Source: Polyangia bacterium (GTDB lineage: Bacteria; Myxococcota_A; Polyangia; Palsa-1104; JAEUJZ01). Taken from it: a stretch of DNA of 64,000 nucleotides. Below are positions 18,777-23,721 of the stretch, piece by piece (position 1 is the first letter of the stretch; each line of letters begins with the position of its first letter). The notes below the pieces were generated by a model. It had not been told where the DNA came from. It searched no databases and worked only from the letters and a program-made list of their open reading frames with translations. Both the position numbers and the translations under genes were made by a program. The stretch is taken from assembly GCA_046351595.1 (NCBI GenBank), contig JAXLYE010000002.1:1496022-1560021 (forward strand), written 5' to 3'.

Positions 18777-22625
<3,849 letters not shown>

Positions 22626-22701
22626 GGCGAGGGTTTTTACGTCACAAGCGTCGCCGCGCAAAGTCCCTATCGCGCGCCCACACCGGTGCTACAGTCGGGC
22701 C

Positions 22702-23067
22702 GTGACGCGCTGGAAGTGCCGCAAGTGCTCGTACGTCTATGACCCCGTGCGCGGCGATCCCGACGGTGGGATCGCACCGGGCACGCCGTTTGCGCGCATC
22801 CCCGACAGCTGGCGCTGCCCGGTGTGCGGTGCCACCAAGGCCGACTTCTACGAGCTGGCCGTGCCGGGGCAGGCCGCGCGTCCCGGCGCCGCGCCCGGGC
22901 CTGCTGCCGCCCCGCAGGGGCCTGCTGCCGTGCCGCCGGGTCCGGGCCCGCTGCCTGTGTCGACGCCGGCCGAGCGCCGCGCCGCCGGCGAGGCGGATCC
23001 GCGCGACGCCCCGCCCGCGCGCCCGCAGCTCTACTGGACCGTCGGCCCGCTCAAGGGCCGGCGCTGA
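22702..23067 (+). CDS. Rubredoxin-domain protein with Pro/Ala-rich C-terminal tail
   Basis: [48 protein letters not shown] is a rubredoxin fold with CxxC...CPxCG. Putative GTG start. The upstream part of the ORF is antisense to mfd. Confidence 0.55.
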
Positions 23068-23106: not shown

Positions 23107-23721
23107 CTACTGCGAGCGGCCGCCGATCGACGCCAGGATCTTCTGGATCGCGTCGCGCGCCGCATCGATCTCGGCCTCGTAGCCGCCGAGCCACAGGCGG
23201 CCGACCGCGCCGAAGGTGATGACCTCAAGGAGGTGCACCTCCGCCGCCTTCTCGGCCTCGTTCGCCGCGATCGCCGCGTAGCCGGCCGGCGCCAGCTCCA
23301 GCGTATACAGCGTCTGCTTCTCGCCGATCATGTCGCCGTGGCGGAAGCGGTTGATGAGCTGCGAGTGGTAGCCCTCGATGCCGTTGATGATCTCCTCGGA
23401 CAGGATCTTCGGCTTGAGGCGCGCGCCCTCGTCGACGCCCATCTTCTCGAGGATGGCGGCGCCGGCCGAGCGCACCTCGCCCTGATCGAACGAGTGGACC
23501 TCGAGCAGGCCGTAGGCGCGCTCGACGATCTGCATGCCCGGGATGACCCGCGTGGCCTTGAGCGCCGTATCGGTGATCTGGTTGATGGCGATGCCCGGCG
23601 CGATCTCGACGAGCAGCGCCGCCTGCCGCTCCAGCGGCAAGAAGCCCTGCGCGACCGTCTGCAGAAAGCCGGTGAGCTGCGGCTGCAAGATGTCGAGGTA
23701 GCTGAAGGTGCGGAGTTCCAT
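23107..23721 (-). CDS. Tandem BMC-domain (BMC-T-like) bacterial microcompartment shell-protein homolog
   Basis: Two ~95-aa internal repeats. Each has the BMC pattern h-E-h...(D/N)xALKAxxVxL..G....GdvxxVxxA ([26 protein letters not shown]; [27 protein letters not shown]...[14 protein letters not shown]). 204 aa matches BMC-T size. Confidence 0.5.

Follow-up and report, generated by a model that had tools for sequence, protein, structure and literature searches.

A BMC-T3 (HO-3341)-type tandem-BMC gene without neighbouring shell genes in a Polyangia genome: a probable satellite shell gene of a Haliangium ochraceum-type microcompartment

The sequence analysed here, referred to below as the window, is a stretch of 64 kb from a bacterium of the Polyangia, a class within the phylum Myxococcota. 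It contains a complete open reading frame on the minus strand, starting with an ATG at 23721-23719 and ending with a stop codon at 23109-23107. The reading frame of 204 codons described in the initial annotation is thus present, and both peptide stretches quoted there were found in its translation. The protein is 100% identical to NCBI MFO0574978.1 (locus tag U1A78_13400), which is labelled as a "hypothetical protein" and for which the precomputed Pfam family is PF27545 (CsoS1D_N). The neighbours named previously, i.e., mfd, a rubredoxin-like gene, a short-chain dehydrogenase (SDR) gene and queA, were all recovered by Pfam, while promoter/terminator and tRNA scans and an Rfam search revealed nothing relevant close to the shell gene. 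The features of the locus are the following:

23107..23721, minus strand: BMC-T^dp gene of the T3 (HO-3341) type, complete in the list of open reading frames, 204 aa
23422..23721, minus strand: N-terminal "cryptic" permuted BMC domain, residues ~1-100, aligning to domain 1 of 5v76, 5v74 and CcmP
23110..23421, minus strand: C-terminal permuted BMC domain, residues ~101-204, with the PF00936 stretch and an AF2 pLDDT of 80-96
23518..23523, minus strand: pore-gate pair Glu67-Arg68, codons GAG CGC, from direct sequence reading and alignment offsets
18777-22661, minus strand: mfd/TRCF helicase, 1294 aa (Pfam)
22420-23067, plus strand: rubredoxin-domain reading frame (Pfam); domain in residues 97-143, then a tail of ~70 residues rich in Pro/Ala
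within 23888-25540, minus strand: queA (Pfam)
25075-25866, minus strand: SDR (Pfam)
26054-26644, plus strand: XRE-cupin regulator (Pfam)
26722-28044, minus strand: citrate synthase (Pfam)

The NCBIfam model of CcmP (NF053796) matched the window protein with an E-value of 3e-76 and 255.6 bits. Because this score does not reach the equivalog cut-off of 340 bits, the protein should be regarded as CcmP-like and not as CcmP proper. A search of the PDB returned end-to-end alignments to nine distinct sequences, all of them tandem permuted BMC-T shell proteins, with E-values from 9e-82 to 4e-39. The best match was 5V76, corresponding to H. ochraceum HO-3341 (BMC-T3; E 9e-82 over residues 1-203, 65% identity), and the others included 5V74 and 5V75, corresponding to H. 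ochraceum HO-5816 (BMC-T2; E 3e-70, 57-58% identity), the CcmP structures 4HT5 and 5LSR (E 4e-59, 50-53% identity), the CsoS1D structures 7DHQ and 3F56 (E 3e-48 and 2e-43, respectively, 35-45% identity) and the RMM double-ring trimers MSM0275 and MSM0271 (5L39 and 5SUH; E 1e-45 and 4e-39, respectively). The name HO-3341 is taken from the PDB title of 5V76, "Haliangium ochraceum BMC-T HO-3341", as a literature search on the locus tag Hoch_3341 gave no match. The CcmP model and the full-length PDB matches confirm the proposal that the protein is BMC-T-like, and its sequence assigns it, more precisely, to BMC-T^dp, the permuted, double-stacking and gated tandem-BMC subtype exemplified by CcmP and CsoS1D.

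The Pfam BMC model (PF00936), proposed as a check in the initial annotation, did not reach its gathering threshold (22.8 bits, E 9e-5, in two stretches, against 24.5 bits), the best stretch covering residues 141-195, and yet the same protein is matched by the CcmP model and by the PDB sequences given above. We interpret this low score as an artefact of the model, because the weakness of PF00936 is known for CsoS1D/CcmP-type proteins (Axen 2014, PMC4207490), because a T2 protein from a complete main BMC locus scores equally weakly (22.5 bits) and because the identical NCBI protein is assigned to PF27545. Using the lack of a significant PF00936 hit as an argument against a BMC identity, as had been suggested, is therefore misleading, since the model is weak for the BMC-T^dp subtype.

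The structure prediction that had also been suggested was carried out for the monomer and retrieved the BMC-T^dp fold: in a Foldseek search with the AF2 model, 5V76 was at rank 1 and ranks 1-33 were BMC-T^dp-type chains throughout. The mean pLDDT of the model was 67, with values of 80-96 in the C-terminal domain and below 50 in the N-terminal domain. This moderate confidence can be attributed to the input homologues, all of which were at least 74% identical, and the model adds little independent support to the family assignment. On the basis of the 65% identity to 5V76, the protein is predicted to form a pseudohexameric trimer, dimerised face to face around a chamber.

The protein had further been described as an internal duplication, with a BMC-domain pattern in each half. 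An hhalign comparison of the N-terminal and C-terminal halves recovered the proposed register, pairing E39 with E142, P42 with P145 and K55 with K158, but the similarity is faint at the sequence level (E 0.012 across 84 columns). Nevertheless, the duplication is certain because the solved structures of the homologues have tandem domains. As for the pattern itself, the peptides are present, but the spacing in domain 1 is one residue off (E-h-x2-G and G-x7-D).

Glu67 and Arg68 were placed by means of the PDB alignment offsets (query 1-203 to 5lsr 3-205, and query 1-193 to 3f56 79-272). In CcmP, the residues that gate the pore are Glu69 and Arg70, equivalent to Glu145/Arg146 of the Prochlorococcus (MED4) CsoS1D (PMC13316943), and the gating residues have been described as universally conserved across BMC-T^dp proteins (PMC8217296). 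In our alignments, E67 and R68 are invariant in 37 orthologues and kept in at least 97% of 90 homologues, a set that comprises both paralogue clades plus other phyla. The same degree of conservation was found for K55, in the ALKAT motif of domain 1, and K158, in the AEKAA motif of domain 2, which probably correspond to the KAAN motif of the facet interface (motif: PMC8217296).

The dN/dS of the shell gene relative to ten orthologues was 0.09-0.33, and the gene is therefore under purifying selection. An isolated gene, annotated at NCBI as a hypothetical protein, could be regarded as a decaying, non-functional relic of a BMC locus that was lost or horizontally acquired. This is highly improbable, as the reading frame is intact and has the same length as those of its homologues, about 60 alignment columns are invariant among the 37 orthologues, and the orphan state is common to a whole deep clade (see below), instead of being a recent accident. 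The pseudogene reading was rejected on the dN/dS values.

The genomic context of the shell gene could also be taken to indicate a function tied to its neighbours and not primarily related to microcompartments, the protein being a conduit of electrons or metabolites for the adjacent rubredoxin or its gene being co-transcribed with SDR-queA. Indeed, the rubredoxin reading frame is convergent with the shell gene, the two stops being 39 bp apart; SDR, queA and the shell gene are co-directional, with a gap of 166 bp before the shell gene; and the order shell gene-rubredoxin-mfd is kept in a 98% identical orthologue (L094). However, L094 is alone in keeping this order and the synteny is absent beyond such near-identical strains: rubredoxin and mfd had no match in any of the 80 loci of our genome-collection scan, including those of orthologues at 82-88% identity, and queA and SDR recur in only one of them (L002), at ~8 kb from the shell gene and on the opposite strand. 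Moreover, convergent genes are not co-transcribed, and other T3 genes adjoin tldD/pmbA or an EF-P-like gene. A tie to the neighbours is thus very improbable, and, given the absence of synteny among the 80 loci, we rejected any coupling of function with rubredoxin, mfd or queA.

Concerning SDR and queA themselves, the two genes abut or slightly overlap in the window, where a queA start at the methionine of MNPARAP... (~25081) would overlap the SDR stop (25075-25077), and they are also adjacent in L002 (15104-16947). These observations suggest that SDR-queA is a conserved, translationally coupled pair without relation to the shell gene.

Searches for other BMC genes in the 64 kb were negative. 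Using tblastn with PduA, CcmK2, HO-type BMC-H, EutN, CcmL and CsoS4A, the best E-value was 0.2, and when the reading frames of six main loci, including the aldehyde dehydrogenase (AldDh), were compared with the window, the sole match was the shell gene itself. This agrees with the earlier statement that the window holds no BMC-H, BMC-P or signature enzyme gene. Satellite BMC loci have been defined as contiguous shell genes with PF00936 only or PF03319 only (Axen et al., 2014, PMC4207490). The window corresponds to this shell-only composition, with a single BMC-T gene and nothing else related to microcompartments in 64 kb.

The orphan state is not restricted to this genome. Among the 80 loci of the scan, the closest of which was 88% identical to the window protein, no BMC-H or BMC-P gene was found within 10 kb of the BMC-T gene in the best 50 (L001-L050; 55-88% identity, almost all with Myxococcota-type MAG labels). 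Most of the remaining 30 (28 loci with 53-60% identity, mostly from Acidimicrobiia) are in main loci of the type T-H-P-...-P-P; the other two, L060 and L067, lack an adjoining shell gene and fall within the orphan clade.

The neighbour-joining (NJ) tree recovered two clades, the first uniting all orphans with HO-3341 and the window protein, and the second comprising HO-5816 and every main-locus T protein. We refer to them as the T3 and T2 clades, respectively. Ten clade-diagnostic positions differ between T2 and T3, and in the window protein nine of them are in the T3 state. Residue 113 is Asn instead of the clade-typical Thr. As regards genomic context, BMC-H, BMC-P and AldDh were directly downstream of the T2-type genes in every case inspected. 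The window gene shares both features of the T3 side, as it groups with HO-3341 in the tree and by identity (65% vs. 57%) and is separated from BMC-H and BMC-P according to the window searches. From these sequence comparisons, the window protein is the orthologue of HO-3341/BMC-T3.

The Acidimicrobiia-type main-locus T proteins (L051-L080) show the T3 state at 8/10 diagnostic positions, yet they branch beside T2 in the midpoint-rooted NJ tree.

The T3 genes display recurrent neighbours of their own. A same-strand tldD-pmbA pair (TldD/PmbA metallopeptidase) is located within ~3 kb downstream of the T3 gene in 12 of the best 50 loci (L008, L010, L011, L012, L013, L014, L016, L020, L022, L023, L028 and L029; e.g., L016:6600-9478 and L011:1132-4023). 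The aligned tldD region starts ~45-540 bp from the T3 gene in nine of the twelve and ~2.8 kb from it in L010. The twelve loci are spread over several subclades (L020, for example, is the sister of the H. ochraceum T3), and the linkage may represent an ancestral context or an operon. tldD and pmbA are absent from the 64-kb window. In L023 (10965-13581) and L028 (10726-13922), which are long contigs of "MFD" MAGs, tldD/pmbA are split into several frames, more likely because of frameshift-type assembly errors than because they are real pseudogenes. In five other loci (L017, L038, L039, L040 and L046), a gene for an EF-P-like protein of ~194 aa is located on the same strand, 18-33 bp downstream of T3.

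The Myxococcota-type main loci, retrieved via BMC-H and T2 homologue searches, have the gene order T^dp - BMC-H - BMC-P - AldDh - BMC-T^s. Two variations of this order were observed. In the main locus of the Polyangia MAG SMAG_U9502, a PduS-like gene (SLBB and 4Fe-4S dicluster domains; L099:6119-7219) occupies the usual place of BMC-T1 after AldDh, and in L115/L116 (5908-6525) a gene with a guanylate-cyclase domain is inserted ahead of T1.

When main loci, searched with nine main-locus proteins, were matched against the assemblies of the orphan T3 loci, there was one match, DATFWX01, the assembly of SMAG_U9502. The orphan T3 gene (L016), whose product shares 77% identity with the window protein, is on contig 62 of this assembly, and the main locus T2-H-P-AldDh (L099) is on contig 3; this co-occurrence in a relative comes from one binned MAG. 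As to the source genome, no shell protein with the U1A78 tag was present among the best 120 matches of the BMC-H and T2 searches, which reach down to ~82-84% identity, a limit that gives this absence little weight.

This last result, together with the lack of a second BMC gene in 64 kb, the orphan state of all the ~50 loci of the T3 clade and the fact that just one of them could be paired with a main locus from its own assembly, would fit a BMC fold co-opted outside microcompartments, a possibility already raised in the initial annotation. The genome would then be devoid of BMC-H and BMC-P genes, with the stacked trimer working on its own, for example as a soluble cage or as a particle that binds ligands. 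However, HO-3341, the best-studied member of the clade, is a shell component whose genome has a main locus; K55, K158, E67 and R68, i.e., the shell-contact and gate residues, are invariant; and the two kinds of locus, orphan T3 and main, co-occur in SMAG_U9502. We therefore consider co-option improbable. In the same way, it is improbable, although conceivable, that the T3 lineage is more than a spare shell tile and that some of its members, perhaps including that of this MAG, occur in genomes without BMC-H and BMC-P and form a free-standing stacked-trimer nanochamber. If this were true, a deep, conserved and always-orphan clade of at least ~50 species, mostly of Myxococcota type, with contexts such as tldD-pmbA and the EF-P-like gene, would have a role independent of microcompartments.

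The reading that we favour, with a probability of about 85%, is that the window gene codes for a satellite shell protein of an HO-type microcompartment, including the stacked-trimer air-lock mechanism. That the gene could be a satellite shell gene had been proposed from the outset, and this gains support from the orthology with HO-3341 and from the distribution of the paralogues, as the T3 clade, with its ~50 members, is all orphan, the T2 genes are in main loci and SMAG_U9502 has both. A main locus would be expected elsewhere in the source genome, outside the window.

The putative home of the protein, the HO-type microcompartment, is an aldehyde-dehydrogenase metabolosome. In its shell, three chains would form a pseudohexameric trimer and two trimers would stack face to face, producing a double disc that encloses a small chamber, with one of the trimers taking the place of a BMC-H hexamer in a shell facet. 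Each trimer would have a wide central pore of ~14 A, opened and closed by the loop carrying Glu67/Arg68. With a gated pore in each of the stacked trimers, the structure is proposed to work as an air-lock that admits metabolites or cofactors whose bulk exceeds the BMC-H pores, according to the model put forward for CcmP, CsoS1D and HO BMC-T2/T3 (PMC8217296, PMC13316943). The distal position of the T3 gene would presumably allow its dosage, and hence the permeability of the shell, to be regulated separately, as suggested for satellite loci generally (PMC8217296).

The fold, the gating, the membership in HO-type shells and the satellite encoding have all been published already, and what is new is a previously unannotated gene. 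Its identification gives a meaning to a "hypothetical protein" missed by PF00936 and indicates that the MAG from which it comes, a member of the Polyangia, probably carries an HO-type metabolosome. Furthermore, T3 was an orphan in 50/50 sampled loci whereas T2 was always in the main locus, which supports the idea of obligately distal, separately regulated shell paralogues.

Among known systems, the closest is the H. ochraceum BMC-T3 (HO-3341), with which the window protein shares 65% identity over the full length (204 aa in the window vs. 206 aa), the clade, the Glu-Arg gate and the interface lysines, in addition to the T3 states at 9/10 positions. Both genes are located away from a main BMC locus: none is present within 64 kb in the window, and Hoch_3341 is reportedly placed apart from the Hoch_5812-5816 cluster. 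The difference lies in the source, an uncultured member of the Polyangia, and in the neighbours, which are queA, rubredoxin and mfd in the window.

The H. ochraceum BMC-T2 (HO-5816; 5V75, 5V74 and 6MZU) has the same permuted tandem-domain fold and gate, with 57-58% identity, but it is a paralogue, and in the main locus the genes of its clade always immediately precede BMC-H, BMC-P and AldDh. The T2 proteins are also longer, at 212-213 aa. A terminal ...KFVD(R/K) tail, present in most of the T2 sequences that were read, is missing from the window protein.

The similarity extends to the carboxysomes. CcmP of the beta-carboxysome (4HT5 and 5LSR), itself a stacked trimer that encloses a chamber, is 50-53% identical to the window protein, and its Glu69/Arg70 correspond to E67/R68. 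The ccmP gene is also usually found outside the main ccm operon. In contrast to CcmP, the window protein has no carboxysome genes around it in the window, its host belongs to a heterotrophic myxobacterial lineage and its organelle would be an AldDh metabolosome. Finally, CsoS1D of the alpha-carboxysome (3F56 and 7DHQ) differs more, with 35-45% identity and an N-terminal extension of ~78 residues (query 1-193 corresponding to chain 79-272), but it shares with the window protein the BMC-T^dp architecture and the air-lock gating model.
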